A stretch of 27,301 nucleotides of DNA from a virus (taxonomy: Duplodnaviria > Caudoviricetes). The notes under the pieces were generated by a model. It saw only the letters and a program-made list of their open reading frames with translations. It made no database searches and was not told the origin of the DNA. Below are positions 781 to 27,301 of this stretch, one piece after another. The number at the start of each line of letters is the position of its first letter. Position 1 is the first letter of the stretch. Location: IMG/VR virus record IMGVR_UViG_3300048592_000447, positions 1 through 27,301 of that record; one strand, written 5' to 3'. The translations under genes and the position numbers were made by a program.

Positions 781-807
781 TTTGCTTTTATACGGGAGAA
801 TTTGATA

Positions 808-5049: not shown

Positions 5050-7237
5050 CGCTTTACTGGGTGTTTGCGATGGCGCGCGCGCCCAGGATGGTTCCGGATT
5101 CAATCGCTTTGATGGCGGTTTTATCCGAAGCCTGCCGGAGAATTGGAGCCCTCGCCAAGAGATGGCTGTTTACAACCTGCTGCGCAAATACAAATCGCAG
5201 CTTTCAAGATTCGGGATTAACTATGACGCAATCGAAAAGCCTGTACTACCACCCGCACCGCCTCCAATCGACATGGACGCCATTCGAGCCAAACTCGCTA
5301 CAAGCCCGGTGGTTGCAAAACCAAACATTCAACCTGCCTCACCGCGTCAGATTTCAATTGAATCGGGAAATATTATTGTCGAATTTCCCTGGAATCAAAC
5401 AGACGTGGACCGAGTCAAGAAGCTCATTCCTGGCGCACGCTTTAAGGACGATAACGGTCGAAAGATGTGGCACGCGCCCCTTAATATCGGGACTGCCGAG
5501 GGAGCTGCTGAGTTATCTAAGGTCATCAATTTCGCACCCGGCGCTTACGAGCAAATCGCTGGAATTATTGCAAAAGCCCACGCTAACGCAACACTTTCAC
5601 GAGCTGAGGACGGCGTCCGGCTCGACTTTACCGGATTCGGCAAGGAGCCCAGACCATTCCAGCACGGCGGGGTTGATTACTGGCTCAAAAACGACCGGGT
5701 TCTGATTGCTGATGACATGGGGCTTGGAAAAACAATTCAAGCGCTGGGCGGTATCTTCCTTTTGGGAGCCAAGCGAGCCCTAATCAACTGCCCTGCTACC
5801 GTCAAGGTGAACTGGGGTAAAGAGGCTGCGGCTTGCCTGCCGGGTGCACAAAAGATGTTTTTCTCGCCTCGCAAAAACTCGTACGAGCATTACGACCAGC
5901 AAGGCAATCACGTCGCCACCGAATATCCATACGCCCATGCTCGTGTCATGTGCCCAATCACGCTAGTTCTTGTTTGCGATTCAAAAACGCCGGCGGATTT
6001 AGTGGCAAAGGCTAACATTCTGGTTGTGAATTACGACCTGAATTCTGCCGGGTGGGCTGATGACAAGAAGAAAAACGTAAATCTCACACCGCTCGCCGAG
6101 GCAGCATCCGAGGGTGTTGAGGTTTATGTGTGCGATGAGTCGCATTATCTCAAAAACGACAAAGCGCAAAGGACCAGGGCGTCATATCAAATCAGCCGCA
6201 ATGTGCCGCACCGCGCTTTGCTGACTGGAACCCCAATTCTTAATCGCCCCGTCGAACTGCCATCGCAATTGGAAATTCTGGACCGCTTAAGTGAATTCGG
6301 CGGCAAGTGGAAATTTTTGCAGCGCTATACAAATGCGCATCAGAAAAACGCGGGGCGCAAGATGGCTTGGGACTTCTCGGGTGCATCGAATCTCGAAGAG
6401 TTAAACGCAAAACTGCGCGCTACTTGCTACATCCGTCGAACAAAAGACCAGGTGTTGACCGAGCTGCCGCCAAAAACCTACGAAACCCTGTCGTTGGAAT
6501 TGGCAAATCGCGCCGAGTATACAAAAGCCGAAAAAGACCTCGTTAAGTACATCAGGGAGATTGCCTATCTCGCCGAGAAAACCAAATCAATTGATGTTGA
6601 TGAGGACGCCGGCACTCCGGAAGAAATTGAAGCACGCGCGCAATTGGCGGCAGAAATCGCCGCAGCAAAAGCCGCCCGGGCAAAGGTGCTAGTCGGTATC
6701 GGTGTTTTGCGCAAGCTCTGCGCGCAAGGCAAAATCAAAGAGGTCGTCTCATTCGTCAATGATTTTATGGAGGGCGACCAAAAGCTCGTAATCTTTGCGC
6801 ATCACATAGAAGTCCAACAAGAGCTGCTTGGCGCTTTGGCTCAATGGGGCGCTACAAGTGTGATGGGCTCGGACTCTGCCACGGTGCGCGCCGAGCATGT
6901 AGCGCGGTTTCAATCGGACCCCGGATGCCGCGTTATAGTATGCTCGCTTGAGGCAGCGGCTGAAGGTATCACCTTGACGGCGGCGTCGACAGTTTTGTTT
7001 GTAGAGCAACCTTGGACTCCTGGTAAAAAACAACAAGCCGAAGATAGATGCCACCGTATCGGACAGAATGACAATGTCACCGTATACGATACTATTGCGC
7101 CTATGTCTTTTGATGAGGACCTGGCAGCGCTACTGAGGGATAAAAGTCAAATCGTTTCAGCACTTGCTGATGGCAATCAGCAAGCAACAATCTCGCAGCT
7201 TCGGGAGATATTGAACCGGATTCAAGCAAGGCATTGA
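5030..7237 (+). CDS. SNF2-family (SMARCAL1/HARP-like) helicase/translocase
   Basis: IADDMGLGKT (motif I), DESH (II), LLTGTPILN (III), YIRRTK, AEGITLT, QAEDRCHRIGQ (VI); HARP-like segment FPWNQTDVDRVKKLIPGARF. Confidence 0.92.
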   Translation: MLKQAVNALLGVCDGARAQDGSGFNRFDGGFIRSLPENWSPRQEMAVYNLLRKYKSQLSRFGINYDAIEKPVLPPAPPPIDMDAIRAKLATSPVVAKPNIQPASPRQISIESGNIIVEFPWNQTDVDRVKKLIPGARFKDDNGRKMWHAPLNIGTAEGAAELSKVINFAPGAYEQIAGIIAKAHANATLSRAEDGVRLDFTGFGKEPRPFQHGGVDYWLKNDRVLIADDMGLGKTIQALGGIFLLGAKRALINCPATVKVNWGKEAAACLPGAQKMFFSPRKNSYEHYDQQGNHVATEYPYAHARVMCPITLVLVCDSKTPADLVAKANILVVNYDLNSAGWADDKKKNVNLTPLAEAASEGVEVYVCDESHYLKNDKAQRTRASYQISRNVPHRALLTGTPILNRPVELPSQLEILDRLSEFGGKWKFLQRYTNAHQKNAGRKMAWDFSGASNLEELNAKLRATCYIRRTKDQVLTELPPKTYETLSLELANRAEYTKAEKDLVKYIREIAYLAEKTKSIDVDEDAGTPEEIEARAQLAAEIAAAKAARAKVLVGIGVLRKLCAQGKIKEVVSFVNDFMEGDQKLVIFAHHIEVQQELLGALAQWGATSVMGSDSATVRAEHVARFQSDPGCRVIVCSLEAAAEGITLTAASTVLFVEQPWTPGKKQQAEDRCHRIGQNDNVTVYDTIAPMSFDEDLAALLRDKSQIVSALADGNQQATISQLREILNRIQARH

Positions 7238-7766
7238 TTTGCCATTCGGTTTTGTGCCAGCCGCGCGCAGTGCCGAGCATCGCAGTGAAGAAAGCGTGAC
7301 GCAATGAACTTGCTTCGCGCTCTTTTCTTGTCTGCCTTCGCTTCTTGAATATCTGCTTTGACTCCGGCAAAACAATTTCCATCGCCGTGAGCATCACCTG
7401 CAATTGAAAGTCTGTGCCCGGCTTGCGCCACCATCTGCCGGTCTCGTCCTTTTCATAGCAATCAATAAACATTGCTATCCAGTCTATAACTAACGCAAGT
7501 AGTATTTGACCGCGCCTGTATTTTTGCTCTTGGACTGCATCGCCCTTGCTTGGCTGTTTTAGTGCGCGCTTGAGTTTTTGCTTTTGCTCCCTGGCGAGTA
7601 CTCGGGCTTTCTTTTCTGCCTCCATCCACGCGATAGGCGAGCGCTGCCTTGCGACCGCGCGCTCGATTCTGGTTTTTTGGCGAATGCGCTCACATGCCGG
7701 GCAATTGCCCATCGGCATCCGGAGGTTGCCGCACTTCTTGCAAATAGGGTTTTTGGGTGGTGGCAT
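7101..7766 (-). CDS. Hypothetical basic protein with N-terminal CxxC...CxxC
   Basis: CKKC/CPAC motifs; last gene of the - arm; overlaps the SNF2 3' end by 137 nt. Confidence 0.6.
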   Translation of the reverse strand: MPPPKNPICKKCGNLRMPMGNCPACERIRQKTRIERAVARQRSPIAWMEAEKKARVLAREQKQKLKRALKQPSKGDAVQEQKYRRGQILLALVIDWIAMFIDCYEKDETGRWWRKPGTDFQLQVMLTAMEIVLPESKQIFKKRRQTRKEREASSLRHAFFTAMLGTARGWHKTEWQINALLESGSISPEAARLLLADCHQQVLKRFDFYPSVALPGPHQKT

Positions 7767-7802
7767 TACGAGTGTCTGCTAATCAGTGTTATGTTTCATT
7801 GG

Positions 7803-8108
7803 TTACCAGCCATCGTCCAACATTTTCATGTCCTCTTCGGTGTGAGGATAGTCAGGAGACTGACAGCAATTGATTTTGAATAACGCTGATGGCGTTTCAC
7901 CACAGTTGTTGCAAACGGGTTCCGGCATGTCGTCTGAAGTGTGATTCTTTTCAAGCTTCTCGCCAAAACTTAAGTCGCCGTCGCTCAACGCTCTGTCAAA
8001 ATTCTCCAATGCTGCAACCGTACTTTCATCCTCCCAGATATGTTCGGTCTCATAGGTGTGCCTGACTTTGAATTTGAATTTCTTTCTGATTGTAACTTTC
8101 TCGCTCAC
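7803..8108 (-). CDS. Hypothetical protein (101 aa, Cys-containing C-terminus)
   Basis: GTG start in repeated junction GGAGGGCGCAATCGTGA. Confidence 0.75.
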   Translation of the reverse strand: MSEKVTIRKKFKFKVRHTYETEHIWEDESTVAALENFDRALSDGDLSFGEKLEKNHTSDDMPEPVCNNCGETPSALFKINCCQSPDYPHTEEDMKMLDDGW

Positions 8109-8413
8109 GATTGCGCCCTCCGTCGTTCTGCCTTGTCCTGTCTCATCATGTCCAACGCAACATCAGCATTGAAAAGAAATTCTTGCTCTGCTGTGATGGT
8201 CTCCTTCTTGTCAGACGTTTTGACGAAATGGATTGTGATACCGTCAGTATCGATGCTGATACCGTCAGTATCGATGCTGATACCGTCTGAGTGCGCAGAT
8301 ACATCCAGATTCCAGCCAGCATCTCCCAGCACGCACGCATAGGTGCAAATCTTTTGCACGGTGACTTTGCCTTCAAATCGCTTTTCAAACGTGTTTCGGA
8401 AACGAACATTCAC
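8105..8413 (-). CDS. Hypothetical protein (102 aa) with internal DGISIDT duplication
   Basis: Starts and ends in junction repeats; ends RAQS. Confidence 0.75.
   Translation of the reverse strand: MNVRFRNTFEKRFEGKVTVQKICTYACVLGDAGWNLDVSAHSDGISIDTDGISIDTDGITIHFVKTSDKKETITAEQEFLFNADVALDMMRQDKAERRRAQS
8236..8287. repeat. 21-bp tandem repeat, about 2.5 copies (tgataccgtcagtatcgatgc)
   Basis: Exact in-frame duplication seen in sequence. Confidence 0.9.
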
Positions 8414-8604
8414 GATTGCGCCTCCTTATCTGCGAGTGCCAGTATTACTTGTGTCGCACACTTGTAAGAGCAGAACACAGCGGAAAACGGCATCATGTTT
8501 CCGCATTGCCCGTCCGGCGTAGCCCATGAATGGTGCTCGCTAACCTGTATCCAGTCGTGCTCGTACTGTTTTAACAGCCGCTTATCGCATGTTCGACAGT
8601 TCAT
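8410..8604 (-). CDS. Small Cys-rich (zinc-finger-like) protein (64 aa)
   Basis: CRTC...FCSYKC; bounded by junction repeats; ends KEAQS. Confidence 0.75.
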   Translation of the reverse strand: MNCRTCDKRLLKQYEHDWIQVSEHHSWATPDGQCGNMMPFSAVFCSYKCATQVILALADKEAQS

Positions 8605-8780
8605 GATTGCGCCTCCTTTCTCACGCTGAGAGTCCGCAATTTATCCTGTCGCTTCCAGAGTCGTAGAAGATACAGATTGAAATTCGCACGCGCTTTCTCT
8701 TCCGCTTCTTTCTGCGTACCAGCTTCAACGGTCCAAGTTCTAATCGCGCTGTACTTCAAACGCACTTGATAGCGATTCAC
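8601..8780 (-). CDS. Small hypothetical protein (59 aa; not in ORF track)
   Basis: Hand translation MNRYQVRLKYSAIRTWTVEAGTQKEAEEKARANFNLYLLRLWKRQDKLRTLSVRKEAQS; GTG after TAAGGAGG; bounded by junction repeats. Confidence 0.75.
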   Translation of the reverse strand: MNRYQVRLKYSAIRTWTVEAGTQKEAEEKARANFNLYLLRLWKRQDKLRTLSVRKEAQS

Positions 8781-8792
8781 GATTGCGCCTCC

Positions 8793-8921
8793 TTAATATT
8801 GTTGGTAGTGATAGTATTGATTGAGCGGTGATGGCTGCATGAGTTTCTTCCTGGCTTTCTGGGCGTCGACGCTCCCTTGTAGCAATCTTGATATTTCGAC
8901 TGGTTTCTTTTGCGCTGGCAT
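8793..8921 (-). CDS. Small hypothetical protein (42 aa; not in ORF track)
   Basis: MPAQKKPVEISRLLQGSVDAQKARKKLMQPSPLNQYYHYQQY; GAGG upstream; its TAA is part of the next TAAGGAGG. Confidence 0.5.
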   Translation of the reverse strand: MPAQKKPVEISRLLQGSVDAQKARKKLMQPSPLNQYYHYQQY

Positions 8922-8923
8922 CG

Positions 8924-9190
8924 TTATTGCCTCGCGTCTCTGCGCTCGCGCGCAATAGTTTCAAGTGCAGACACGGGGCGTTGTTTTTCAATCACACCAT
9001 GCGGATAGCGAACCTTCACCAGTTTGTCTGTTAGCTGGTTTACATCCTTGTCTGTCAGCGCAATCTCATGTTCTGCGCCATCAATTTCAAGCAAAAAAAC
9101 ATTAACTTCGCCGTGCTCATCACCAGCAGTGGCTTTTTATATTTTAAAACGAGGATTGGTATTTGTTGAAAGTGTTTTCGATTTAGCCAT
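8924..9190 (-). pseudogene. 88-codon gene interrupted by in-frame TAA at codon 18
   Basis: AAGGAG RBS, ATG 9190, MAKSKTLSTNTNPRFKI*KATAGDEHGEVNVFLLEIDG...; stop at 9137-9139, frame then stays open to 8924. Confidence 0.65.
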
Positions 9191-9231
9191 TTTCTTCTCC
9201 TTTAATTACGTCCGATAAGGGTCTTTATGTT

Positions 9232-9510
9232 TCAAATTGGGCAATCTTCAATAACCGATTTCCCACCGTAATGAATGAAACGGCTTGATGTCGGGTGCTC
9301 GCGCCGATAGTCTTGTAAGTTGACGCAGTAATCGACCTCATCTTCTAGCTTGGCTATCGGAATATTCAACCCAATAGCCCCTTTCTCGATGATGACCTTG
9401 GCGCCATTGAACGCGCCACCAATCAGGTCGACAGTCTCGCGCTCGGCATTGCGGTCTCGCAGCATCTCGTGGGTTATCCATTCTCCCTGTTCATTCTTCC
9501 GTAGCATCAT
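9232..9510 (-). CDS. Hypothetical protein (~92 aa)
   Basis: ATG 9510 overlaps the upstream stop (ATGA). Confidence 0.65.
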   Translation of the reverse strand: MMLRKNEQGEWITHEMLRDRNAERETVDLIGGAFNGAKVIIEKGAIGLNIPIAKLEDEVDYCVNLQDYRREHPTSSRFIHYGGKSVIEDCPI

Positions 9511-9758
9511 CTCGGTACGCTCCATTTTTGCATCGGTAAATTCTCCTCTCCCATCGCCCAAGTGATACCGAGGGCGATACCATAATAAATAGCTGCGTTT
9601 GTTTCCGCATCTTTGGCGGGCTTGCCATTCGGCATGACAATGATAGGCGCTTCAGCGACTTTACGGGACATTCCCAGCATCGCCAGCCGCTGTAACTGCA
9701 TTTGGAATCGGGTTTTTCTGCCCTCGCTTGGATTGCCGAGCTTTCTGAGTTTTGTCAT
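9507..9758 (-). CDS. Hypothetical protein (83 aa)
   Basis: ATGA overlaps at both ends. Confidence 0.65.
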   Translation of the reverse strand: MTKLRKLGNPSEGRKTRFQMQLQRLAMLGMSRKVAEAPIIVMPNGKPAKDAETNAAIYYGIALGITWAMGEENLPMQKWSVPR

Positions 9759-10511: not shown

Positions 10512-10897
10512 ATCTCTCGTCCTTTTCCGTCTGAACCATAAATCCAACTCCCCCGATTGCCTTTCTTTGTTTTGATATACGCCGCGTCCATCTCTTCTTG
10601 TAGCTTGGTTCTGCGCAGAGCCTGCTCGCGGTTTCGCTCTTCTTCGTGTACGCGCAGCATCGTTTCATTGTCGATGCAGTAAACGCACTTGCAGGTTGTA
10701 GGCGAAGTGGCGACAGCAAATTCCGCCGCCTTTTGTTGCAGCATCAGCTCTTTCAATAGATGGCGCGCCTTGTCGTCGACCGGGCTTCCGCCAGCAAAAG
10801 CCAGCTCGTCGGTAATGCCGAATTCGTTGACGCGCACGCCGCGACCCACGACCGCAATCATGATGTCGGTTATTGAAAGTTTCCCTGGCGCTTTCAT
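10508..10897 (-). CDS. Hypothetical protein (129 aa, CxCxxC motif)
   Basis: ATGA-coupled at both ends. Confidence 0.7.
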   Translation of the reverse strand: MKAPGKLSITDIMIAVVGRGVRVNEFGITDELAFAGGSPVDDKARHLLKELMLQQKAAEFAVATSPTTCKCVYCIDNETMLRVHEEERNREQALRRTKLQEEMDAAYIKTKKGNRGSWIYGSDGKGREI

Positions 10898-11101: not shown

Positions 11102-11140
11102 GGTAGCACAACAATAGCATGAAAAATCTACTATTGGCAA
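11102..11140 (-). promoter_or_regulatory. Possible sigma70 promoter of RHH operon with TGCTA half-sites
   Basis: TTGCCA-18 nt-TATTGT with TGn extension; TGCTAT and TGCTACC half-sites at 11102-11119. Confidence 0.35.
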
Positions 11141-16507: not shown

Positions 16508-16768
16508 TTAATCGCGCTCGTCACCTTCAGTGTTTTTAACGCCGATTCTATATGCCGAAGCTATAGTCGCAGCCACCGAAACGGACAAAGCGGCGAGCCC
16601 GGCGCCGACAGCCCATTGGCACATCTGCACGAAGAAAACAGGCACCTGGTGGACCTTCCCGGCGAGCTGTGCCTGCCTGTCTGCAACAAGCTCATAGGTG
16701 AGCAGTGCAAGAATCCAGCAGACGACTACCGCCGCAATTGTGAGCTTGATGCGCTTTTCAGTGGACAT
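16508..16768 (-). CDS. Putative holin / two-TM membrane protein
   Basis: Two hydrophobic segments and a charged tail, in the lysis module; start could be upstream (frame open to 16858). Confidence 0.55.
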   Translation of the reverse strand: MSTEKRIKLTIAAVVVCWILALLTYELVADRQAQLAGKVHQVPVFFVQMCQWAVGAGLAALSVSVAATIASAYRIGVKNTEGDERD

Positions 16769-16858
16769 ATCTCTTTGGCTACCTGTGGACCGGCAGCGAT
16801 GCCGACGAGTGCGCACGTCAAAAGGACCATCACTATAAAGGACGGCGATAAATAACAA

Positions 16859-17221
16859 TTACTCAGCAGCTTTTGCATCTTCCACCTCCGCAACTGGCAT
16901 GAGCTTCTCTTTGTTAGCTTTCATGCGTTTTTCTACACGGCTGACGATTTCACTAAGTGCGTGCAAGTGCCCGGCGGCTTCCTGTGCGTCATCAACGTAT
17001 TCGTCGAAATCCATCTTGTCGTTTCCGTCGGCATCGCCAAGAGCTTCGCGCAGCTGCTCCTCGCCGAACTTGCGAAGAGATTCAATATACTCGGGCAGCT
17101 TTGCCTTGTGCTCCTCGATAAGCTTCGGCAAGTACTGCTTGATGAGTGCCGGTGCTTCTTTCTTCAGCTCGGCGACGATGCCGGGGAGTTGCGATTTTAC
17201 GATGCCTGCGAAAATGTTCAT
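16859..17221 (-). CDS. Hypothetical helical protein with EF-hand-like loop
   Basis: DADGNDKMDFDEY; ATGA-coupled to lysozyme. Confidence 0.75.
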   Translation of the reverse strand: MNIFAGIVKSQLPGIVAELKKEAPALIKQYLPKLIEEHKAKLPEYIESLRKFGEEQLREALGDADGNDKMDFDEYVDDAQEAAGHLHALSEIVSRVEKRMKANKEKLMPVAEVEDAKAAE

Positions 17222-17763
17222 GCGTATTTTCCTGTCAAGAAGATGGTGCGTTCTCTTTGTCTGCGGGTGAGCAGTCCGGGCGTGTATTGACCGCCGGAGT
17301 ACACCCAGCGCAGCAACTGATTTGCGGCTTCTGTTTTCTTGCCTTCATTAAGTCGCTTAAGAAGGGTAGAAGTAGTGAAGCCAGCGATGCCTTGTTTGCG
17401 GTCGCCCAAGCCAATATTGAAGATAAAAATGACGATGGCGTCATACTCATGCTGCTCAAGCGGGATTTTCACCTCGACCCTAACAGAATTCTCGAACCGT
17501 CGTAAGTCCTCCAAAAGCATCTGTGATGCTTGCGCCTCGGTTACGCCGTTCTTGTATTTCTCGTAGTCAGTCTTTGGATTCCAGAGCACGCGCCCGTATC
17601 CGACGGTCAGCTTTCCTTTTAAAGGCATTGAAGGATTCCAGTCAATTGGATTTCCTTTTTTATCTTTGGAATTTTTATCGTCGTAGGGCTTCGACCTGAA
17701 CGCCTCATAATTTTTAAGGCGGTGCAATCCGGCTGGCGAAATTTTTCGTGCGGCATTAATCAT
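17218..17763 (-). CDS. Endolysin, GH24 phage lysozyme
   Basis: LKNYEAFRSKPYDD, TVGYG, YDAIVIFIFNIG, STLLKRLN, RWVYSGG..GLLTRRQRE. Confidence 0.92.
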   Translation of the reverse strand: MINAARKISPAGLHRLKNYEAFRSKPYDDKNSKDKKGNPIDWNPSMPLKGKLTVGYGRVLWNPKTDYEKYKNGVTEAQASQMLLEDLRRFENSVRVEVKIPLEQHEYDAIVIFIFNIGLGDRKQGIAGFTTSTLLKRLNEGKKTEAANQLLRWVYSGGQYTPGLLTRRQRERTIFLTGKYA

Positions 17764-18212
17764 TTGAGCGCGACTCCATATGTGGCGGCAGTGCTTTCAA
17801 TGCGTGACGATGCCGGGTCTAAGTTGCCCAACAATCCTTTTGCTTTCGCCCACAATGCTTTGCGGTCAGCGTCGGACAACTCGGGGTCGGAAAGTACGTT
17901 GATGTACGGAATGTGGGCGGCGTTAACCTGCGAAAGCTTATAGCAGGCAAAGCGAAAACCTCGGTAATCTGGGCCTGGCGTATCCACCCAATCAAAAGTT
18001 GCTCTTTCTGCGCTGGCCCAATCTCTCTGTTTCTGAGTAGCTTCCGGTTTGAAGTCGATTCGACAGTCCGCACCACTGCCAGAAATCCCGTCAATCGGGA
18101 TACCCTGCGCTCTAAGATACTCGTCAAAGGCTGTCTGCCCGGTTTTCGCGGAGACGGGGAGCACTACTAAAAATAGTGCTACTGAAAATGTCAACAGAGT
18201 CGAAAGTTTCAT
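17760..18212 (-). CDS. Tail-fibre-associated protein with signal peptide
   Basis: Directly follows the fibre gene; N-terminus MKLSTLLTFSVALFLVVLPVSA. Confidence 0.7.
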   Translation of the reverse strand: MKLSTLLTFSVALFLVVLPVSAKTGQTAFDEYLRAQGIPIDGISGSGADCRIDFKPEATQKQRDWASAERATFDWVDTPGPDYRGFRFACYKLSQVNAAHIPYINVLSDPELSDADRKALWAKAKGLLGNLDPASSRIESTAATYGVALK

Positions 18213-18217
18213 ACTTA

Positions 18218-20659
18218 CTACATCTCCAAACGTACTGTCATGCCGGTTTGTAAAGCCGAGCCACCGTCATCGCCATACCAGGTTGTCGTTCCGGTAGCAT
18301 CGCTGTATTCCTGCATGATTAGTGCATGTTTCCCGATCCCAACCGTTGCACCGTAAGTTGCGAAGTGGATACAGGCACTAATTGTGGCGCCGCTGGTCGT
18401 TGAAGAAGTTCCGTTAAACGCTGAATTTGCCGTTGCGGAGTCTAGCCCGATGCCGCAATAGCGGTTCGCAGTTCCTATATTGTTGTGCCTAGTGGTGTGT
18501 ACCGCTTGCGCTGATACGGAAGTAGGCGCACCGAGAACAAAAGATACTTGTCCGCCACCGTCGGTGGTGTTGTTGTTGATCGCTCTATAGGCGGCGGTAG
18601 TATAGGTCCATGAGTTTGTCGTGTCTTTGCAAACTGCAATACGAGAGGCTCTGTTATCGGCGTTAAATAGTCCTCGGATCGATTGATTATCAGTACATTG
18701 ATTGGTGCCACTGGCATAAAGTGTTCCGAGAAATCTACGAGTCTGATCGCCCGTTTTGTGAGTGACTCCCGATGAATCGATAGTCAATCCAGTGGCGCGG
18801 GTTGTTGTGTCAGTCCAAACTAGCGTTTCAAGCGCCAGCGTGCCACCACTTAAATAACCCCATACGTCATACACACTACCACTGGTGAGCGTTAGCGAAA
18901 GCGATTTTTCGCCAGGCAGAATATTTACGTATCGAGATGCGCCGCTGTCGTACAGGCTGATTACGCCATGTTTAAATGGCGTCCAATACAAAGTGCCTTG
19001 AGCGGATGCGTCAGCGACCGCAGAGCCGCTCGTTAATGTTAATCTGCCACCATTGCAGATTGGGAGGTTTGTATAGTCACCAATCGCGTGAACACGGAAA
19101 GCGGGAGTCGTCGCAGAGCCAGATGCTGGACCTGCCAGAAATGTATTAGCGCTTTGATCGCTCAGCGTTTGCGTCAGAGTGCCTGACGATGTAATCGCTG
19201 ATGACCATGTTGCGATACCGGTTGGTCCGGCAGCTCCAACGCTGGTTACGGTGCCCGCGCCGCCGCTACTCCACTCGGGGGCGGTTGCGCCGGAATTGAC
19301 CTTTAGGGACTGCCCGGCAGTGCCGATTGGCAGCTTTGCAAGCGTTGTCGAACCAGTCGCATAAAGGATGTCACCAGCCGAATAGCTAGAACTTCCGGTG
19401 CCACCGCCGCCCGCTCCAAGTGTGCCGAACGAGCCAGCGGATGTGCCGCCACTGAGAAAGGGCTGTCCGGAGGTGCCCGCGCTGGAAAAATTTATAGTGT
19501 TATTTCCAACCCCCTGGGCGACACCACCGGCGGTTGCGGCGCCGGATTTGTAAGCAATGTCTACGTTACCGTTGGGGTTCGGTAGGCTGAGAGTTTGACC
19601 GGTCGCACCGGGCGCCCAATCGACCACAAAGGTATTGGAGCTTGACCCTTTTAAGGTCATACCGGTCGCGTTGTTTGTGAATGACGGCGAGGTCAATTCT
19701 TTATCTGTCAGAGTGTCGGTCGAGGTTCTGCCAACAAGTGTTTGTGCGCTCGATGGGAACGTCATCAAGTTGGCACCGGCAGTCAAGGTGCCTGTCGAAA
19801 GAACGGGAGCCGCTGATAAAGTTTTGACACCGCCAATGGTTTGCGCGCCAGCCGTCATAACAAAAGACGATGTGCCCACGGATGGGATAGTGACGGTTTG
19901 ATTTGAGCCGGGGTCAGTGACTATCTTTGTGGTGGCGATTGAGCCTTCCAGGTCCAGACCGTCGGTATTCGCGTCGGCGATAACAGGTCCACCAGTGAGC
20001 GTCTTTGGACCGCCAAGGGTCTGCGCGCCAGTGGTTCTGACAACCGTCGAATCTACATCTATTGCAAAAGTGCCCGAACCGACAACAGCGGTCGTCCCGT
20101 CGCCATCGTCTGCTACGTGGGCATTTGCCAGCGCGCCATCGCCCTGGGTGACTACGTAATGCGCATCATCCGGAGCGCCACCGCCGCCACCACCACCAGA
20201 GGCCCACTCGGGAGCCGTGGCGCCAGCGTTAACCTTCAGGAATTGCCCGGCGGTGCCAATTGGCAATCGGGTGACGGTTGTCGCCGAGTTTTTGTAGAAG
20301 ATATCGCCGGTTGCTGACGAGGGCAGATTTGAGATAGCGTTGAACGCCGTCTGATTGGTCGTTGCCCCAGTGCCGTACCAGTAGGAGAGGATGGGACCAA
20401 GTCCGACGACGTAAGTATTGCCCGGTCCATTGTCGGAAACCGAGAACTGTGGCACCGAGAACGTCAAGACGCGCTCGTTCGTTAGATTCGAGTTTGAGCT
20501 GAGAGTGAAATAGCTCGCATCAAGGGGCGCCACACCGGACAGGCTAGGCAGCCAGCCAACGGGTGGACCCTGGAGGACGGCGGGGGAGTCCGCTATCGCC
20601 CATGGTGCAAAGATTGTGAACGCTAGAAATAGCGCAAGGAGCTTATTGACGAGCCGCAT
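18218..20659 (-). CDS. Long tail fibre protein with signal peptide (813 aa)
   Basis: Gly/Thr/Ser/Ala-rich; duplicated GDI.Y...LPIGTAGQ.LKVN.GATAPEW and GAQT.GG.KTL fibre motifs; N-terminus MRLVNKLLALFLAFTIFAPWAIA. Confidence 0.85.
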   Translation of the reverse strand: MRLVNKLLALFLAFTIFAPWAIADSPAVLQGPPVGWLPSLSGVAPLDASYFTLSSNSNLTNERVLTFSVPQFSVSDNGPGNTYVVGLGPILSYWYGTGATTNQTAFNAISNLPSSATGDIFYKNSATTVTRLPIGTAGQFLKVNAGATAPEWASGGGGGGGAPDDAHYVVTQGDGALANAHVADDGDGTTAVVGSGTFAIDVDSTVVRTTGAQTLGGPKTLTGGPVIADANTDGLDLEGSIATTKIVTDPGSNQTVTIPSVGTSSFVMTAGAQTIGGVKTLSAAPVLSTGTLTAGANLMTFPSSAQTLVGRTSTDTLTDKELTSPSFTNNATGMTLKGSSSNTFVVDWAPGATGQTLSLPNPNGNVDIAYKSGAATAGGVAQGVGNNTINFSSAGTSGQPFLSGGTSAGSFGTLGAGGGGTGSSSYSAGDILYATGSTTLAKLPIGTAGQSLKVNSGATAPEWSSGGAGTVTSVGAAGPTGIATWSSAITSSGTLTQTLSDQSANTFLAGPASGSATTPAFRVHAIGDYTNLPICNGGRLTLTSGSAVADASAQGTLYWTPFKHGVISLYDSGASRYVNILPGEKSLSLTLTSGSVYDVWGYLSGGTLALETLVWTDTTTRATGLTIDSSGVTHKTGDQTRRFLGTLYASGTNQCTDNQSIRGLFNADNRASRIAVCKDTTNSWTYTTAAYRAINNNTTDGGGQVSFVLGAPTSVSAQAVHTTRHNNIGTANRYCGIGLDSATANSAFNGTSSTTSGATISACIHFATYGATVGIGKHALIMQEYSDATGTTTWYGDDGGSALQTGMTVRLEM

Positions 20660-21044
20660 GTACTGTTGCCCTCACGACCGGGGTATCCGAGACAAGATAA
20701 AACGCGGTGCCTTCCTGTCCCGTGAAAGCCCATTGCCCCCTTTCTTCAATGGATTTTGTGTAATCGGCGGCGGCAGCGCCCGCCTTTGTCCACTCTCCCC
20801 ATGTTTTGTTAAAAATATAGACCGCGAGCTGACATGCCGTATCAACAAGAACGGAGGCGATGTTGCTTTCGTAAATATAGCCATGCGCCGCCGCGAGGTC
20901 GTTTAGTGCTGGACCACCAGCCGAGCCCGGTGCTTTGTCGCCGATGGCGTAATTGCCAGCCCCGATGACATAGTCGCCCGAACTGTTGTAATTTTTCGGC
21001 AAATCCCGGCTGGGATTGAAGGTGACTAGGTTTGATGTGCGCAT
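20643..21044 (-). CDS. Hypothetical virion-module protein (133 aa)
   Basis: GAGG RBS; between fibre genes; no signal peptide. Confidence 0.7.
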   Translation of the reverse strand: MRTSNLVTFNPSRDLPKNYNSSGDYVIGAGNYAIGDKAPGSAGGPALNDLAAAHGYIYESNIASVLVDTACQLAVYIFNKTWGEWTKAGAAAADYTKSIEERGQWAFTGQEGTAFYLVSDTPVVRATVHAARQ

Positions 21045-21051
21045 CGGTTCC

Positions 21052-21939
21052 TCACAGTTTCATGATGTAGCAAAGGGCGTAGTCGGCGGGCTCGCTGGCG
21101 GCTGTTTGAATTGAGCGAACGAACGGGGGGATTAGGTGGTAGTGAGACCCGGGGTTGCCAAACTGGTTTGGGGCACCGTTAAGGATTATCGGGGCTTGGC
21201 TGTTTGAGCCGTCACTTGTTCCACCGGTAAAAATGCTTGCGATGTAGCCGCTGTGTACATGGGTATTACTACCATGCTGAGAGTTTGCGGTATAAGCCCC
21301 AAAGCCGCCGCTTGAAGCGCTTGACGATGAACCGTTGGGCTTGGTGCCGATAACAAACAAGCCGATTAAATTCGGGGTGCCGCTGCTTCCATCGCAAAGA
21401 GCCCAGCCGGACGGAATAGTTGAGGTGCCAGCGGCGGCGGGAGACCACGAGACGATTGAGCCAGTCGGGAATGGGTTTGATAAGGCGCTCGACCATGACG
21501 GAATGCCTGTCATGCTCACCGTTAAAACCTGTCCGTCCACGCCAACTGGCAGGCGCTTGACGAGCTTGTCTTGAAAGTAGAGCAGGTCACCCTTGGTGGT
21601 GAGTGGTTGCTCGCCAGAGTAGCTCTCCCACTTGACGCCAGTCTGCTCGGAGCTTCTCGATACGATTTTGTGACCGTTGGTGCCAGCCGCCAACTTTTGC
21701 AAATGGGCGCCATCGTAGACATACAAGTCGCCTTTCGTCACAAGCAAGTTGAGTGGTGCCACCACGTTTGTATTAAGCCACGTGTAGGCGCCGACTACGG
21801 TCGGATTCCAATGGTCCAGAGTGCGCATTATGTCGCCCGGATTAAACCGAGCAGGCTGTCCAATCGGCGGGCACACCGAGGCGCCGGCGACTGCCGTTGT
21901 CAAAAGAAAAACCAAAAATAGCCGAATGAGATTTGTCAT
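21052..21939 (-). CDS. Tail collar-domain short fibre protein with signal peptide (paralog 2)
   Basis: PTGSIVSW..IPSGWALCDG..GTPNLIGLFVIG collar motif; ends YALCYIMKL. Confidence 0.85.
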   Translation of the reverse strand: MTNLIRLFLVFLLTTAVAGASVCPPIGQPARFNPGDIMRTLDHWNPTVVGAYTWLNTNVVAPLNLLVTKGDLYVYDGAHLQKLAAGTNGHKIVSRSSEQTGVKWESYSGEQPLTTKGDLLYFQDKLVKRLPVGVDGQVLTVSMTGIPSWSSALSNPFPTGSIVSWSPAAAGTSTIPSGWALCDGSSGTPNLIGLFVIGTKPNGSSSSASSGGFGAYTANSQHGSNTHVHSGYIASIFTGGTSDGSNSQAPIILNGAPNQFGNPGSHYHLIPPFVRSIQTAASEPADYALCYIMKL

Positions 21940-22811
21940 TGCTTCATGATGTACACGAGGGCGTAATCAGCCGGCTCGGACGTGGTGGCGCCCGTAACAC
22001 CAGCATTTACAACAAAAGTATGCGTATGGCTGCCACCCGACAAAATAGTCGCGCCAACTTGCGCACCGCCGATAACCGAATTCGCAGCGGTGGTGGTACC
22101 ACTGGCGGCGTCTACGGCGTGAGTGTGATTGACCGAGCCCGAGCCATTGGCATCGACGGTCTGGGCTCCGTAACCATCCACAGCAGGGGCGGCGGCAGAG
22201 CCCCCGGGTCGCGTGCCAATAATGAAACGACCGATAAGGTTCGGGGTGCCGCTGGCTCCATCGCAAAGGAGCCAGCCAGTGGGGATAGTGTTTGTCGCGG
22301 CTGCGGCGGGCGACCAGGCGATAATAGTTCCGGTCGGAATGGCAGAGGCTGAAGATTCCCAAGCAATGCCTTCGGTGGCTGAACTTCGAGCCGTGAGAAC
22401 CCTTCCGTTCGCACCGACCCCAAGCCTTGTCGCACCGGAGGCGTAGGTGAGTATGTCTCCTTTTGTGGTGAGCTGGGCGGCGTTTGCAAAGGATGCAAAA
22501 GCGACACCCTTGGAATCGCCAGAGGCTGCGGTGAGGACCTGTCCGTCCGTGCCTGCTGCGAGCCTTTGAAGCGAGGACCCATCGTAAACATACATATCCC
22601 CTTTCGTGGTGAGCTTGTTTAAGACTGGGACAATGTTGTTATTTATGTACGAATAAACGCCGCCGACGTCGCTATTCCAGATGGTGTTTGTGACAGTAAA
22701 GCCGGACGCCCTGGTCGTGGGTACCACCGCCGACGATACCACGGTCGCAAAGCAGGGGATGGCGAAAATCAGCGCCACCAGCAGGTTTATGATAATACCC
22801 CGATATTTCAT
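21936..22811 (-). CDS. Tail collar-domain short fibre protein with signal peptide (paralog 1)
   Basis: PTGTIIAW..IPTGWLLCDG..GTPNLIGRFIIG; HTH motifs; ends YALVYIMKQ. Confidence 0.85.
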   Translation of the reverse strand: MKYRGIIINLLVALIFAIPCFATVVSSAVVPTTRASGFTVTNTIWNSDVGGVYSYINNNIVPVLNKLTTKGDMYVYDGSSLQRLAAGTDGQVLTAASGDSKGVAFASFANAAQLTTKGDILTYASGATRLGVGANGRVLTARSSATEGIAWESSASAIPTGTIIAWSPAAAATNTIPTGWLLCDGASGTPNLIGRFIIGTRPGGSAAAPAVDGYGAQTVDANGSGSVNHTHAVDAASGTTTAANSVIGGAQVGATILSGGSHTHTFVVNAGVTGATTSEPADYALVYIMKQ

Positions 22812-24454
22812 ATTTTATTTCCCATCATGTCTACATCTGCGACTATTTGAACAAAATCGATATTGTCGTCCTCGTCCTGCCCTTTGATTTGAAATTCGAC
22901 AAAATCACAAGCGCCCAGACAGCTATACTGCTTCAGGACTTTGACCTGGTCGGCGGGGAATGAACTGGAGTCGGCTATCCACGAATCGAGAATGGTTTGC
23001 GTGCCAGTGTCGTCGGCGGTCATGCGAAAGTCTTGAGGCTTCGCCTGGTTGCGAATCATTGATTCCTTCACGGTTCGCACGTACTGGAAGGCGTTCATGA
23101 TAAACCGCTGGGCTGCACCCTCGCAGACGACCCCAATCTCTTGTATCTGCATTGATTTAAGCGGATTTTGAACACCCATCAAGGCTGTCATTATTTCAAA
23201 CGGAACGGGCGCGGTGTCGTACTTGGTGCCGACATAGTGACGCTGCAAAACGCCGTCAATACCACCGCCGATAGACTCTTTATTGAAGTAAATAGACGCA
23301 GTAACGGTGGTACCGGATTTGGTGAACCACTGCGGGACCGGGCGACCGGGCTGAGAGAAGTCGTTGTTGTAGTTCGCGACAATCGCGTCCTGGCATTCCG
23401 TATTTGCATCGAGCGGCAGCCAGATGACAATGTCCTGCGTGCGCTTGTTGTGGAAAGCATGAATCTTGTAGGCGTGAGCCGGGTTGACGCGCGCGATGAT
23501 GTCCTGAATGTCCATCGAGAGCATGTCGGTAAGCAGTGAGGAGTTGCTCGCCAAAGTCGAGAACGAGGTCAGTCCCTTGTCGGAGAAAAACCACATGTCG
23601 TTATAAAGCGGAATCCAGGTGTGGTTGCTCGGGATGCCGTATTCTTCGGTAAGAACTGTCAAGGAAAAATTTGTCGCATCCGTGCCGGAGAGCATACAGA
23701 CGCCGCTCTCACAGGCTATGAGCGCGATTTGGATGTTGTCAGCGTTCGACAATCTAAAGCTGACGCCACCTGTGGGATTACCCAGACGGGGTGGCAATTG
23801 GCGCATGTCTCCATCGGTCGCGAGTAGCGGCGTTGCCTGCGTGACGACTTCTGCTTCGCCCGTGTTTGTAATGAGCACATCATACCGGGTGTCGTCGTCA
23901 GGAAAGCCAAAAATCAACAGCCTGTCGAGGAATGGCACGACAAACTTGGGGATGCCGTAGCTCTTTGCTGGCATCGGGGATGTGGTCGCCGCACCGCCAC
24001 CATAGGCGCTACCATTCAGCTCGAAGGCTGCCGAGGTCGACAAGTCGGTGATTTTAAGCGGCTCGTCTTCGCCGTTTGAGAAGATGCCGAAAGATGGACC
24101 CGAGGCGTATGGCTGAAACATGGCAAAATTTGGAATCGCTGCCGGGTCAAGGCTGTTAGCGATTTCCGTTTCCGTTTCCGTCCCGAAGTCGTAAGAATAA
24201 ATCTTGTCGCCGACCTGAAAGATGAGATTTTTTGAGCCGTCAGCGGCAAGGATAAATTCGGAGAATCCTAAAAACTTTGCACCACCATTGAAATCGTCAG
24301 CACGCACCCTTTCCCAGCCGCGCACGCGCGAAGTGACGACGCCCCGCTTCACCTGGTTGACGTTGTTCAATACTTTGGCTTTGGTGGTCGGACGTCTCAG
24401 GTCGGAGACGTAGGTTGCAAGACCAGCTTCAGCGGATAGGGTTAGTGGTGGCAT
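22808..24454 (-). CDS. Putative packaged-DNA stabilisation / tail nozzle protein
   Basis: 548-aa beta-rich protein directly after the adaptor, as in podovirus-type modules; positional inference. Confidence 0.6.
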   Translation of the reverse strand: MPPLTLSAEAGLATYVSDLRRPTTKAKVLNNVNQVKRGVVTSRVRGWERVRADDFNGGAKFLGFSEFILAADGSKNLIFQVGDKIYSYDFGTETETEIANSLDPAAIPNFAMFQPYASGPSFGIFSNGEDEPLKITDLSTSAAFELNGSAYGGGAATTSPMPAKSYGIPKFVVPFLDRLLIFGFPDDDTRYDVLITNTGEAEVVTQATPLLATDGDMRQLPPRLGNPTGGVSFRLSNADNIQIALIACESGVCMLSGTDATNFSLTVLTEEYGIPSNHTWIPLYNDMWFFSDKGLTSFSTLASNSSLLTDMLSMDIQDIIARVNPAHAYKIHAFHNKRTQDIVIWLPLDANTECQDAIVANYNNDFSQPGRPVPQWFTKSGTTVTASIYFNKESIGGGIDGVLQRHYVGTKYDTAPVPFEIMTALMGVQNPLKSMQIQEIGVVCEGAAQRFIMNAFQYVRTVKESMIRNQAKPQDFRMTADDTGTQTILDSWIADSSSFPADQVKVLKQYSCLGACDFVEFQIKGQDEDDNIDFVQIVADVDMMGNKI

Positions 24455-25219
24455 TTAATACCACCCTTGGCGCCCAACCGTGTTGGTGCCATAGCCCCGC
24501 CGAGGGGTGCGACCGGCAATTCTAACGTCCATCCGGACGCCCGGCTTGCGCTCCGATGGTCCGGTCGACCACTGCTTAACAGAGTCGACAGCCTGCTTGG
24601 CAAGCTCGTAGATAGTACCATCGGTGACACCACCCTTTAGCGACCACTCAAGCAAGGTCCCCGCCGCGGCTTGTAATGCGAAGATGTAGTCGTCAGGGAA
24701 GACCAGGATGTCCTCGCGGTTTTGCGGTGTCGGCACGTTGATTTTGCACTGATACTCGCAGACGTAGGCGGCGTCCGGGATGGGGTCAAAGCGAACCCGC
24801 TTCGTGCGCACCGCGGAGGCGGAATCCGTTGGGACTTCGAGCCACCAGCATGGCTGCGCGGTCGAAACAAGGGAGTCATCTGTATAGATTCGACGCCAGG
24901 CATTATAGCCGCCTGGATACGCTTTCATCCTGCCAGGCGAGTCCGTGCCGAGCAAGATGATTGAAAAGGGCACAAGGTTCTCGACTGCCGCTGTGTCATC
25001 CAGGTCATACTCGGCGACTCCGGCGGACAGTGGTAATTGAAAGCGCCGCTGCATCCACGGCTCATTCATTCGGCTCAAAACGGCTTCGTGACAGAACTCA
25101 AAGAAACGACGCATCTGTCTTTGATACTTCGTTTCATTGTCAGTCCCAAAGTTCTGAGGCGGTATCGCCTGCTGACCGTGAAACTCAAGAGTTCTGTCAC
25201 AAAATTCGCCGTAGAGCAT
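24455..25219 (-). CDS. Putative head-tail adaptor / tail tubular protein A
   Basis: L.AGVAEYDL, VRFDPIPDAAY, FPDDY motifs common in phage adaptors; position after capsid genes. Confidence 0.65.
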   Translation of the reverse strand: MLYGEFCDRTLEFHGQQAIPPQNFGTDNETKYQRQMRRFFEFCHEAVLSRMNEPWMQRRFQLPLSAGVAEYDLDDTAAVENLVPFSIILLGTDSPGRMKAYPGGYNAWRRIYTDDSLVSTAQPCWWLEVPTDSASAVRTKRVRFDPIPDAAYVCEYQCKINVPTPQNREDILVFPDDYIFALQAAAGTLLEWSLKGGVTDGTIYELAKQAVDSVKQWSTGPSERKPGVRMDVRIAGRTPRRGYGTNTVGRQGWY

Positions 25220-25815
25220 TAGTAGTCCGTTACCTGCACTTCAACAGAACCAAAGACGCCAATCGCATCCGTCCCAGCCGAGCCCTGTGCGTACTCCAAA
25301 TAAATAGGAGTGGTCGCCGGGATAGCCAAATCAGCAGCGGTCGAGGTCAGGGTCGCATTGGTTGTGGTGTTTGCCGCCAATCCGGTCGCATTGATGGACG
25401 CAGCGCTCAGCAATGTATTGCCGGACGAGCTGCCCTTGAGCGCCTTCAAGGTGTCAGTGCCACCAACGGGAGGGGTTTGAGCCACGAAGCTGACACCAGT
25501 TACGGTGCAAGCTCTACCCACAGGGATGAGAGCCCTGTAAGTAGTGGAGTCAGCCGCTGCGCCAGTTACGGGCGACAGGGGTACCGTTATACGGAAACGC
25601 CTTGCGGCATTCGTGACATTGGAGCCCGCGAGCGGGGTGCCCAGTGTCAGTGCGCCGGTTAGCGAAGTTGTCCCGCTTACACTCAGGTTTCCGTAGATAG
25701 CCTGATTGCTATACGAGTGGGAAGTCTCGGTAGCGGCGAATGCCATCGGCGTAAAAGCCAACAGCATTGCCACCACCTGCGCTACCACCAGCATCGGGGA
25801 AAGTCTTTTCAACAT
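25219..25815 (-). CDS. Putative capsid decoration/fibre protein with signal peptide
   Basis: Directly after the capsid gene; Thr/Ala/Gly-rich; GNLSVSGTTSLTG motif; N-terminus MLKRLSPMLVVAQVVAMLLAFTPMAFA. Confidence 0.65.
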   Translation of the reverse strand: MLKRLSPMLVVAQVVAMLLAFTPMAFAATETSHSYSNQAIYGNLSVSGTTSLTGALTLGTPLAGSNVTNAARRFRITVPLSPVTGAAADSTTYRALIPVGRACTVTGVSFVAQTPPVGGTDTLKALKGSSSGNTLLSAASINATGLAANTTTNATLTSTAADLAIPATTPIYLEYAQGSAGTDAIGVFGSVEVQVTDY

Positions 25816-25843: not shown

Positions 25844-26761
25844 TTACGCGCCTTTGCAGCCTACCCAGCCTCTCCAAGAGGCGACCAGGAACGAGTACGC
25901 GATGCGCACTTTGATGACAATGTCATCGGTGTCCTCGTCGATATACATCTTGAAGATTGGACCTTCTCTCAAGAAGAAATAGGTCTGAATCTGGGTTGGG
26001 TCGCAAGCGTAGAACTGAGTATTCTTATACTCGTCCGGAGCGTTCGCCAAGAAAGGCAAACAAATCGGGTCGTAGTCGAATACGTTGATATCGAAGTCTT
26101 GCTTGCCAGCTTCGTATTGCCCTGTCATCGAGAGCTGTTTGGCTCTGCGGCGCAGTTTGGGCGGTACGAATACACGCAAGCGCTTTCCGTTGCCCATCGG
26201 GCAAAGACCATTTCTCTCGTTTCTGGTTTCGAGCAAGTTGACTTCGATATCGTTCAACGTATCGGAGCCGAACGCGCCTGTAATCAGGTTCGAGTAGGTC
26301 TTACCAGGGGCTTTGGCGAGGCTGTGCTCGCCGAACCATGCGCCACCGTCCGGAGATTTGGTCTGCAAGAACCCGTTGTAAATCAGGCTTGCAGCGTCTT
26401 CATTGAGTTTGCGCTGAACGGATTCAGCCAGACCCCATGATTTCTTTTCCATTTCTTCGTACATATTGTCGCGCTTCATTTGGTGGGAGATGCGCTCCTC
26501 ACCGGTAAAGTCGTCATGCACGACCGACGCGAGTCGGACCTTTTCGGTTTGAAGGCGAACATAGGGCGCGCCTTCGGGGGTTTTTACGACCGGACCAGGC
26601 ATCGCGTACTCAAGCATTTCCTCGCGGCGTTTTTTCGATTTGACCTCGATGAACGCTTTCTTCCAGTCGGTTTGTTCTTCCAGACCGGCGGTGAAATTCT
26701 TGAATAGGGTTTTTTCGGACTGTTCCAGCCAATCTTGGATGGTGATTGTGCCTGCTGACAT
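25844..26761 (-). CDS. Major capsid protein (HK97 fold, Mu gpT-like)
   Basis: 305 aa; TPEGAP, ISHQMKRDN, AASLIYNGF, DGGAWFGEHS, VFVPPKL, WRGWVG pattern; AAGGAG RBS. Confidence 0.85.
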   Translation of the reverse strand: MSAGTITIQDWLEQSEKTLFKNFTAGLEEQTDWKKAFIEVKSKKRREEMLEYAMPGPVVKTPEGAPYVRLQTEKVRLASVVHDDFTGEERISHQMKRDNMYEEMEKKSWGLAESVQRKLNEDAASLIYNGFLQTKSPDGGAWFGEHSLAKAPGKTYSNLITGAFGSDTLNDIEVNLLETRNERNGLCPMGNGKRLRVFVPPKLRRRAKQLSMTGQYEAGKQDFDINVFDYDPICLPFLANAPDEYKNTQFYACDPTQIQTYFFLREGPIFKMYIDEDTDDIVIKVRIAYSFLVASWRGWVGCKGA

Positions 26762-26772
26762 TTTGAAACTCC

Positions 26773-27294
26773 TTATTCAACATCAGGGAAAGAAACTTCA
26801 ACCCAAAACTCTTTCGGATTGAGGTTGTAGCCTTCGATACGAGCGTGACCGCCGGACGCGCCAGCGATTTTCGGGTCAATACCTTGAGCTGCCTCAACCG
26901 AGGAGAGCTTGATGGCGCTCGAACCGATGCCTTTCGGCAGGATGGAGATAACCGTCGCGACCGACGGAGCCGTGTCTCTCGCGGGCGAGAAAGTGACAGT
27001 GTGAGTGCCACCGGCTTCGGCATCATTTGTGATGGCGTGGTGAGTGTCGGTGTCGTGAAAATAAATCACACCGCCGTCGAAATCACCCGCCGATGCACCA
27101 CTCAAGAATTTCGCCGTGGTTGTAGTCCCGGCTTCTGAGCAAGCGTCTGAGTCAATCTCCAAACCTTCGCCGGTAAGGGAAGTTTTGAAAACAGCGTCAC
27201 CGCCCATCGCGTGCATATATTGAATAAATTCACATGCAGCAGTTGTGTTTTCCGGATTGGTTGCCGGTTTGCGCATCTCGTCTGCGCGAGCCAC
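26773..27294 (-). CDS. Putative head decoration/cement protein (start may lie beyond the window)
   Basis: Immediately upstream of the capsid gene; beta-rich; GTG start sits at the window edge. Confidence 0.55.
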   Translation of the reverse strand: MARADEMRKPATNPENTTAACEFIQYMHAMGGDAVFKTSLTGEGLEIDSDACSEAGTTTTAKFLSGASAGDFDGGVIYFHDTDTHHAITNDAEAGGTHTVTFSPARDTAPSVATVISILPKGIGSSAIKLSSVEAAQGIDPKIAGASGGHARIEGYNLNPKEFWVEVSFPDVE

Positions 27295-27301
27295 GCGGGA
27301 A

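Follow-up and report, generated by a model that had tools for sequence, protein, structure and literature searches.

The 27.3-kb viral record IMGVR_UViG_3300048592_000447 (27,301 nt; the whole of this stretch is called the window below) carries late genes of a tailed phage in which five proteins of the virion module begin with predicted Sec-type signal peptides (leaders). These are two short collar/needle fibres, a long fibre or spike of 813 amino acids (aa), and two smaller proteins of 198 and 150 aa (Table 1). In the textbook view, the particles of tailed phages are completed in the cytoplasm before lysis. The analysis presented here suggests, with a probability of roughly 0.6, that the five peripheral proteins are exported by Sec and then dock on particles after the holin has ruptured the inner membrane.

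Predicted leaders on the peripheral virion genes

The initial annotation had described a basic n-region, a hydrophobic h-region and a small-residue cleavage site at five N-termini, and all five open reading frames (ORFs) were recovered with this anatomy, including cleavage sites of the AxA type. The capsid, the adaptor, the nozzle (the "stabiliser" of that annotation) and the lysozyme are leaderless, as it had claimed, and so is p133, a conserved protein encoded directly before the long fibre. Leaders were called uniformly by a hand-written rule, not a trained predictor, that requires an uncharged 8-mer with a mean Kyte-Doolittle (KD) hydropathy of at least 2.3 starting at residue 3-16, a net basic n-region, and small residues at positions -3 and -1. 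Among the 69 greedily called ORFs of the complete form of the same phage (G001; 47,617 bp, 99% complete), the rule flags five, exactly those noted above. The greedy caller skipped two small early genes outside the virion operon, of which one (G001 14854-15246) passes the rule and the other (window 10050-10547) fails, though it is leader-like. As a measure of chance, the rule fired in 0 of 1,372 internal sequence windows of the five mature proteins and in 97 of 32,372 sequence windows of all proteins in the gene slots compared below. No transmembrane segment was seen in the five mature parts (maximum 19-residue KD 0.54-1.22). Lipoprotein and twin-arginine (Tat) readings were rejected: no twin-arginine motif occurs among the leader-bearing slot proteins, and no lipobox with Cys at +1 occurs in those proteins or in window ORFs of at least 40 aa.

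The starts themselves are backed by their context. At 22811 and 21939 the start and the preceding stop share an ATGA, and the start at 18212 lies 5 nt beyond the stop before it, in agreement with the coupling or abutment noted initially; the start at 20659 overlaps p133 by 17 nt, and AAGGAG stands 13-8 nt upstream of the start at 25815. The genes are translationally coupled within the late operon, and no promoter-like site was placed before any of the five starts by a weak scan (2 sites found, 6.5 expected); morons or lysogenic conversion genes would be expected to have a promoter and terminator of their own and to be additional to the structural genes. In collar fibre 1 the next in-frame Met is residue 73, within the conserved mature part. 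A dual start yielding a cytoplasmic form was set aside by what is a weak test, as detection of Shine-Dalgarno sequences is itself weak here: no internal start preceded by such a sequence is shared behind the leaders, and any such start occurs in 4 of the 50 leader-bearing slot genes, at differing positions.

Whether the leader is an addition that co-occurs across the same gene set in related phages had been posed as a check, and the comparison of relatives bears it out, with leaders that are conserved, cleavable-looking and placed on ordinary fibre domains. In 13 related genomes, whose slot coordinates were hand-chosen and whose rows are not independent (they include two near-duplicate pairs), the rule flags 50 of 60 peripheral genes versus 0 of 69 core genes, the latter comprising the 231-aa gene, capsid, adaptor, nozzle, p133 and lysozyme. 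By slot, leaders were flagged in 12 of 13 genes behind the capsid, 11 of 13 first and 7 of 7 second collar genes, 9 of 11 long fibres (the two misses are short of K/R only), 8 of 10 first small genes, 2 of 3 further fibres and 1 of 3 second small genes. Excluded from these counts were the G111 long fibre and the G112 nozzle, both split at contig ends, the G110 p133, which was not found at a contig junction, seven lysozymes, and the distant locus L259.

Within the collar family, for which 120 of 463 matches were listed, 68 of the 73 full-length members carry a leader versus 0 of 47 distant relatives; of the five misses, one has a truncated start and the other four show an h-region to the eye. 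The leaders of this family are strong (9-residue KD 2.3-3.6). Across a 56-row alignment, identity to the query is 32% in the leader versus 52-68% in the mature parts, and the -1 residue is A or G in 55 of 56 rows with a small residue at -3 in most. Low identity combined with a near-invariant small -1 residue is what would be seen in a signal constrained in function and not in sequence. In the 198-aa family, 16 of 23 homologues pass the rule, two look mis-started, two are short and leaderless (P0129 and P0130), and three (P0139, P0140 and P0142) hold the domain inside longer leaderless proteins.

Leaderless forms of the collar fibre occur in the same clade. In two complete genomes (G112 and G113) the collar gene occupies the same slot and lacks a leader, its start coinciding with the predicted cleavage position of the leader-bearing forms; in G113 an in-frame stop lies directly upstream. 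Because these orthologues begin at the predicted cut, the leader is regarded as a removable add-on. The two genomes form a clade sister to the leader-bearing G002 and G003 in two of four trees, those of the adaptor (support 98/96) and of the collar (84/89), and their placement is not resolved by the capsid tree; with trees that are midpoint-rooted only, the leaderless state is likely a loss. In G091 (L276 4534-11298), a prophage of the same host order, all structural genes are leaderless, p133 was not detected, and the single fibre consists of a collar-type N-terminal domain (E 1e-8) fused to a long-fibre head (E 2.5e-7). This prophage offers a natural control.

Fibre identity, the tail nozzle and the extent of proposed export

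The two collar/needle fibres (291 and 295 aa) and the long fibre can clearly be identified as receptor-binding fibres. Collar fibre 1 (291 aa) is laid out as a leader, an N-terminal helical domain putatively used for docking, TTKGD repeats, a collar and an HxH needle, in which H229 and H231 are nearly invariant. The collar profile matches the solved fibres 9qgo, 6ov6, 9nxk, 8on5 and 2xgf (E 3e-11 to 6e-3), and the match to Pfam Collar falls below its cut-off. A Foldseek search with a model of the collar monomer (predicted template modelling score 0.38) ranked 6ov6, 8on5 and 9nxk first, with nothing at an E of 0.001 or less, and the docking domain showed no significant homology to the N-termini of distant leaderless fibres (hhalign E 0.3), the motif being alike by eye. 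The long fibre joins a conserved shaft to divergent, swappable heads (alignment A6), and its residues 454-796 match gp18, the tail spike of Pseudanabaena podophage Pam5 (27%, E 3e-14). In close strains, a breakpoint falls at 18689 in the long-fibre tip (last ~150 residues) in 4 of 4 public runs, where the 150-aa gene diverges too, and further breakpoints in these four runs hit the needle tip of each collar fibre. Variable tips on conserved shafts are as expected of receptor-binding proteins. Profiles of the adaptor, the nozzle and the long fibre gave no sequence match in the PDB.

There is good support for these three proteins as virion members; for the 198-aa and 150-aa proteins membership is only suggestive. 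The 198-aa protein, modelled with a predicted local distance difference test score of 81, has a short variable-length beta shaft and a jelly-roll head that is similar to the heads of phage fibres and to minor capsid chains. The podophage minor capsid chains among the matches are 8h89_J (Z 8.2, root-mean-square deviation (rmsd) 3.2, 118 residues aligned) and 7eel_H (Z 7.8, rmsd 8.1, 132 aligned), which we take to be cement proteins and which are tied with unrelated jelly rolls. The 198-aa protein is likely a head fibre or decoration; the ESM Atlas yielded no named family for it. No family was found for the 150-aa protein by Pfam, PHROG or the ESM Atlas, and it is a candidate tip partner or chaperone of the long fibre. 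A candidate cytoplasmic docking piece for the long fibre is p133; it gave no PDB match and no similarity to Pam5 gp17.

Folding by disulfide bonds was rejected as the driver of export for this clade, as cysteines are neither enriched nor paired: there are 0.54-0.79 Cys per 100 mature residues in the main leader slots versus 0.72-1.31 in core proteins, and the first collar slot has 10 odd and 3 even counts. Serine and threonine together make up 20-23% in four fibre slots, 14% in the small slot and 9-18% in core proteins.

The nozzle was recognised as a single-copy gene of ~550 aa that follows the adaptor and matches tail-protein profiles, the family matching phrog_3287 in 7 of 9 cases, phrog_8094 in 4 of 9, phrog_376 in 2 of 9, and phrog_5107 (labelled amidase) in 6 of 9. 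Gene order is kept in four further prophages (G062, G051, G097 and G091), of which the first three, all from Obscuribacterales, form a sister clade that encodes p133 and has no collar gene. Each of these three carries one nozzle gene, and it begins with a leader, called by the rule in G062 and by eye in G051 and G097; their long fibres begin with leaders too. A nozzle encoded in single copy is indispensable to the tail, and of all the evidence its leader therefore argues most strongly that exported proteins rejoin the particle. Across the nozzle homologues, 33 of 57 pass the rule, and the others sort by eye into 6 that clearly lack a leader, 1 fragment and 17 whose leaders are long, uncharged or truncated; the count of 10 changes on the nozzle tree is inflated, since its labels include mis-started proteins. 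In a more distant lineage of the same class (14 loci, L291-L304, with a match in 47 of 401 genomes), none of the 14 nozzles and none of the 11 fibres downstream has a leader. Some 40 genomes of the class carry this leaderless block of capsid, adaptor, nozzle and fibre, a frequency that points to a prophage family of wide occurrence or to an element that has been domesticated. As read from these leaders, the boundary of export appears to shift among lineages, from nothing, to fibres only, to the nozzle plus fibres.

The phage, its late operon and its host

The late operon of G001 starts with large leaderless proteins, the terminase, a 676-aa portal-position gene, a scaffold-position gene, the 231-aa gene and the capsid. 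It continues with the 198-aa gene, the adaptor, the 548-aa nozzle, the two collar fibres, p133 and the 813-aa fibre, and ends with the 150-aa gene, the lysozyme, p120 and a holin-like gene, beside which a terminator-like hairpin lies at window positions 16455-16425. By size and position, the large proteins before the terminase are likely ejection proteins, and by position the 231-aa product is likely a head decoration or cement protein; it has no PHROG or Pfam match. Tail tube, sheath and tape-measure proteins had no match in G001, which is why a short tail is inferred. No fibre candidate other than the leader-bearing genes, leaderless candidates included, was recognised in G001. The lysozyme appears to be of the canonical holin-dependent type, and the gene assigned as holin-like is so called from its transmembrane segment and its position after the lysozyme.

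Table 1. Features of the window, with nozzle genes of the sister clade (coordinates of the latter on their own loci); "leader n/m" gives the genomes or genes in which a leader was flagged
Feature	Coordinates	Strand	Remarks
231-aa gene, 3' part (cut by window end)	26773..27301	-	full gene in G001; precedes capsid gene; leader 0/13
Major capsid protein	25844..26761	-	PF25209 E 8e-9; leader 0/13
198-aa protein	25219..25815	-	leader, predicted cut after residue 27
Head-tail adaptor	24455..25219	-	PF24175 SU10_adaptor E 5e-6; leader 0/13
Tail nozzle, 548 aa (P22 gp10/T7 gp12 position)	22808..24454	-	leader 0/12 in own clade
Collar/needle fibre 1 (short)	21936..22811	-	leader, predicted cut after residue 22; phrog_1800 E 1e-18
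Collar/needle fibre 2 (short)	21052..21939	-	leader, mature part predicted from about residue 21; paralogue of fibre 1, 48% identical; phrog_1800 E 3e-14
p133	20643..21044	-	leader 0/12
Long fibre/spike, 813 aa	18218..20659	-	leader, predicted cut near residue 23; BppL_N E 4e-8
150-aa protein	17760..18212	-	leader, mature part predicted from residue 23; behind long fibre; homologues in L253, G110, G112
Lysozyme	17218..17763	-	PF00959 E 3e-31; leader 0/6 entered
p120, conserved lysis-region protein	16859..17221	-	DxDxDG loop
Holin-like membrane protein	16508..16858	-	one strong transmembrane segment, 19-residue KD 2.3; position after lysozyme
Nozzle of G062 (L275)	7316..9025		leader by rule; family P0144-P0200
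Nozzle of G051 (L277)	7658..9514	-	leader by eye; family P0144-P0200
Nozzle of G097 (L278)	6761..8479		leader by eye; family P0144-P0200

Prophage forms of two relatives occur in Obscuribacterales genomes, where host genes flank them on either side and a resolvase-family gene marks the edge; the ATPase flanking one of them (G003) has orthologues 64-76% identical in other genomes of the order. Among 107 genomes of the order, the capsid family occurs in 6 and the full-length collar family in 2. Given these integrated relatives, the host of the window phage is probably a member of Obscuribacterales, an order placed in Candidatus Melainabacteria, which are diderm relatives of cyanobacteria that do not photosynthesise. 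A Saccharibacteria label on one locus (L087) was set aside as a probable mis-binning of a 12-kb phage-only contig. Near-identical sequence occurs in activated sludge, wastewater and soil runs, with at least half of the sequence words in 4 runs from 4 studies, and RNA runs hold only small shares of the sequence.

Several other features of the phage and its relatives were noted. The EF-hand-like DxDxDG loop of p120 is kept in many relatives, and a role in disrupting the outer membrane, for which no spanin was found, is speculation. In one subclade (L252 19817-20461, L167 13216-13827, L262 2482-3147) the lysozyme is encoded on the other strand and follows the holin-like gene. A tandem duplicated gene pair (window 2335-3099/3304-3864 and 3080-3307/3861-4508) encodes two Ala/Asp/Tyr-repeat proteins, the second Imm5-like (E 4e-5); behind each of them stands a further gene, and these two further genes share their N-terminus. 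A sliding-clamp homologue, an SNF2 helicase, a DnaG primase and a DnaB-like helicase are encoded at window positions 802-1698, 5030-7237 and 11131-13645; no DNA polymerase or integrase was noticed in G001, and no tRNA genes were found.

Proposed assembly route, its alternatives and precedents

If the five proteins are exported, they would pass through Sec, be cleaved by signal peptidase I and be held in the periplasm, where the fibres would trimerise, and the head, the adaptor and, in this phage, the nozzle would assemble in the cytoplasm. The holin would then open the inner membrane, the leaderless lysozyme would escape, and the two compartments would mix inside the outer membrane, which, no spanin having been found, would confine both pools long enough for docking. 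Mature N-termini, matching the N-termini of the leaderless forms, would bind the neck of DNA-filled particles, with p133 as the likely anchor of the long fibre. The initial annotation had proposed that peripheral parts are exported or membrane-tethered; export has gained from the conserved, cleavable-looking leaders added to fibre domains across the same gene set, and tethering is weighed below. The fuller proposal, that virion assembly is split across the inner membrane along a boundary that shifts by lineage, independently of disulfide bonds and possibly hiding parts from Avs13-like sensors, is given an even chance.

What would drive such a route can be suggested only speculatively: the most likely benefit is that receptor-binding and triggering parts stay apart from the particle, or out of reach of cytoplasmic sensors, up to the moment of lysis. 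The candidate drivers that remain are infectivity delayed until lysis, host modification of Ser/Thr-rich proteins, and evasion of cytoplasmic sensors. Avs13 senses tail nozzles, with no fibre among the targets in the available text of the report, and also senses capsid, portal and adaptor (PMC13581612). These last three are sensed yet not exported, which is set against sensor evasion as the driver.

Several observations weigh against export followed by docking. First, the leaderless collar fibres of G112 and G113 lie within the same clade, so that export is not required for that part. Second, an exported nozzle, as in the sister clade, leaves the retention of DNA in the head until lysis unexplained. 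Third, an orphan leader-bearing nozzle (G051:C59; L280 8294-10057) belongs to an element that carries a primase and has neither capsid nor adaptor in its vicinity, and such a gene can thus occur without a virion of its own. Fourth, the fold match of the 198-aa protein is not decisive (best Z 8.2), and the window capsid is only 28% identical to those of the two prophages that share the collar gene and through which the host is inferred. Finally, the cultured cyanophage Pam5 has two small signal-peptide-like genes, gp19 and gp20 (L284 4999-5804), right behind its spike, in the same position as the 150-aa gene and unrelated to it, and their products are not marked in particles in the available text of the report (PMC9382816). 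As a separate observation, the orphan nozzle gene adjoins a zinc-ribbon/Toprim primase and a DUF3987 gene, in what is possibly a satellite carrying the tail part of a helper.

Some of these difficulties would be eased if the leaders were inefficient, such that a cytoplasmic pool builds the virion and an exported pool has a second job, for example receptor occupation against superinfection. The leaderless orthologues show that these folds can assemble in the cytoplasm, the DNA-retention problem of the nozzle clade is sidestepped, and weak Shine-Dalgarno detection could have missed internal starts. Such double use is nevertheless unlikely: the internal starts that were detected are few and share no position, a cytoplasmic precursor would retain a hydrophobic leader on its putative docking end, and the leaders of the collar family are strong.

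A role outside the virion was the alternative offered by the initial annotation, in which the proteins are host-surface adhesins or receptor blockers of fibre origin. Bacteria do export phage-fibre-like adhesins, the MAT fibres of Bdellovibrio bacteriovorus being an example in the portion of the report available (PMC10769870), and the absence of gp19 and gp20 from the proteins marked in Pam5 particles and the orphan nozzle gene both fit this explanation, which is still plausible for the 150-aa and 198-aa proteins. For the set as a whole it is weakened and quite improbable, since it would leave the phage without any recognised fibre. The tips are variable, the genes are coupled members of the late operon and none of them has a promoter-like site in front of it in the weak scan, the same-slot orthologues are leaderless, a single-copy nozzle such as that bearing a leader in the sister clade is unlikely as a surface protein, and the full-length collar family is confined to two prophages among the 107 host-order genomes.

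Hydrophobic N-termini can also serve as anchors, and uncleaved leaders might hold the fibres, and thereby the particles, at the inner membrane while the virus assembles or leaves the cell. This is very unlikely given the near-invariant A or G at -1 and the mostly small residue at -3, the short h-regions, and the orthologues without a leader, which begin where cleavage is predicted. That the leaders are misread starts or chance, a concern because they were called by a hand-written rule, is largely refuted by the coupled starts, the lack of internal false positives, the clean split between core and peripheral genes, and the position of the next Met in collar fibre 1.

Export followed by docking can be set beside several known systems. 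Phages of the SU10, P22 and T7 type have in common with the window phage a PF24175 adaptor, a nozzle-position protein with PHROG tail matches, and large leaderless proteins before the terminase. Such phages assemble all parts in the cytoplasm, whereas here the fibres, and in the sister clade the nozzle too, carry leaders. Coat proteins of filamentous phages (M13 pIII and pVIII) are virion proteins with cleavable leaders; they are, however, membrane-anchored and leave the cell by non-lytic extrusion, and these phages have no HK97 head and no lysis cassette. Fibres of the T4 gp37-tip type (Pseudomonas phage Pa223 9nxk, Bizionia C24 6ov6, 9qgo, T4 gp37 2xgf) share the collar and the HxH needle; the collar fibres of the window differ in beginning with a leader, which no distant collar relative among the matches listed does. 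Pam5 gp18 (ON014757) has the head domain of the long fibre in common but is leaderless, with an N-terminus unlike that of the window protein; it is listed as detected by mass spectrometry of purified particles, in preparations in which, by the available text, Pam1 and Pam5 co-occur (PMC9382816). The MAT fibres are phage-fibre-like trimers with signal peptides and surface display, and differ, as far as the accessible part of the report goes, in being encoded by cellular genes outside a virion operon and in having a conserved ~130-aa domain after the signal peptide (PMC10769870). Phages of Porphyromonas gingivalis likewise carry genes predicted to use the host Sec system, although in the available text these are of unknown function, are read as host-surface modifiers and are not identified as fibres (PMC10367356). 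No description of exported structural proteins of a tailed phage was found in the literature searched, subscription-only papers aside.

The component proteins belong to known fibre and neck families, and it is the proposed export route that appears new. Natural controls exist inside a single host order, in which the same fibre and the nozzle each have orthologues with and without a leader; these make leader-swap and fusion experiments possible in Escherichia coli without culture of the host. The trait is independent of disulfide bonds in this family. If the proposed route is true, some virion components travel by way of the host secretion system and could there be modified or hidden from cytoplasmic immunity, and infectivity would be acquired at lysis, with intracellular particles being non-infectious.

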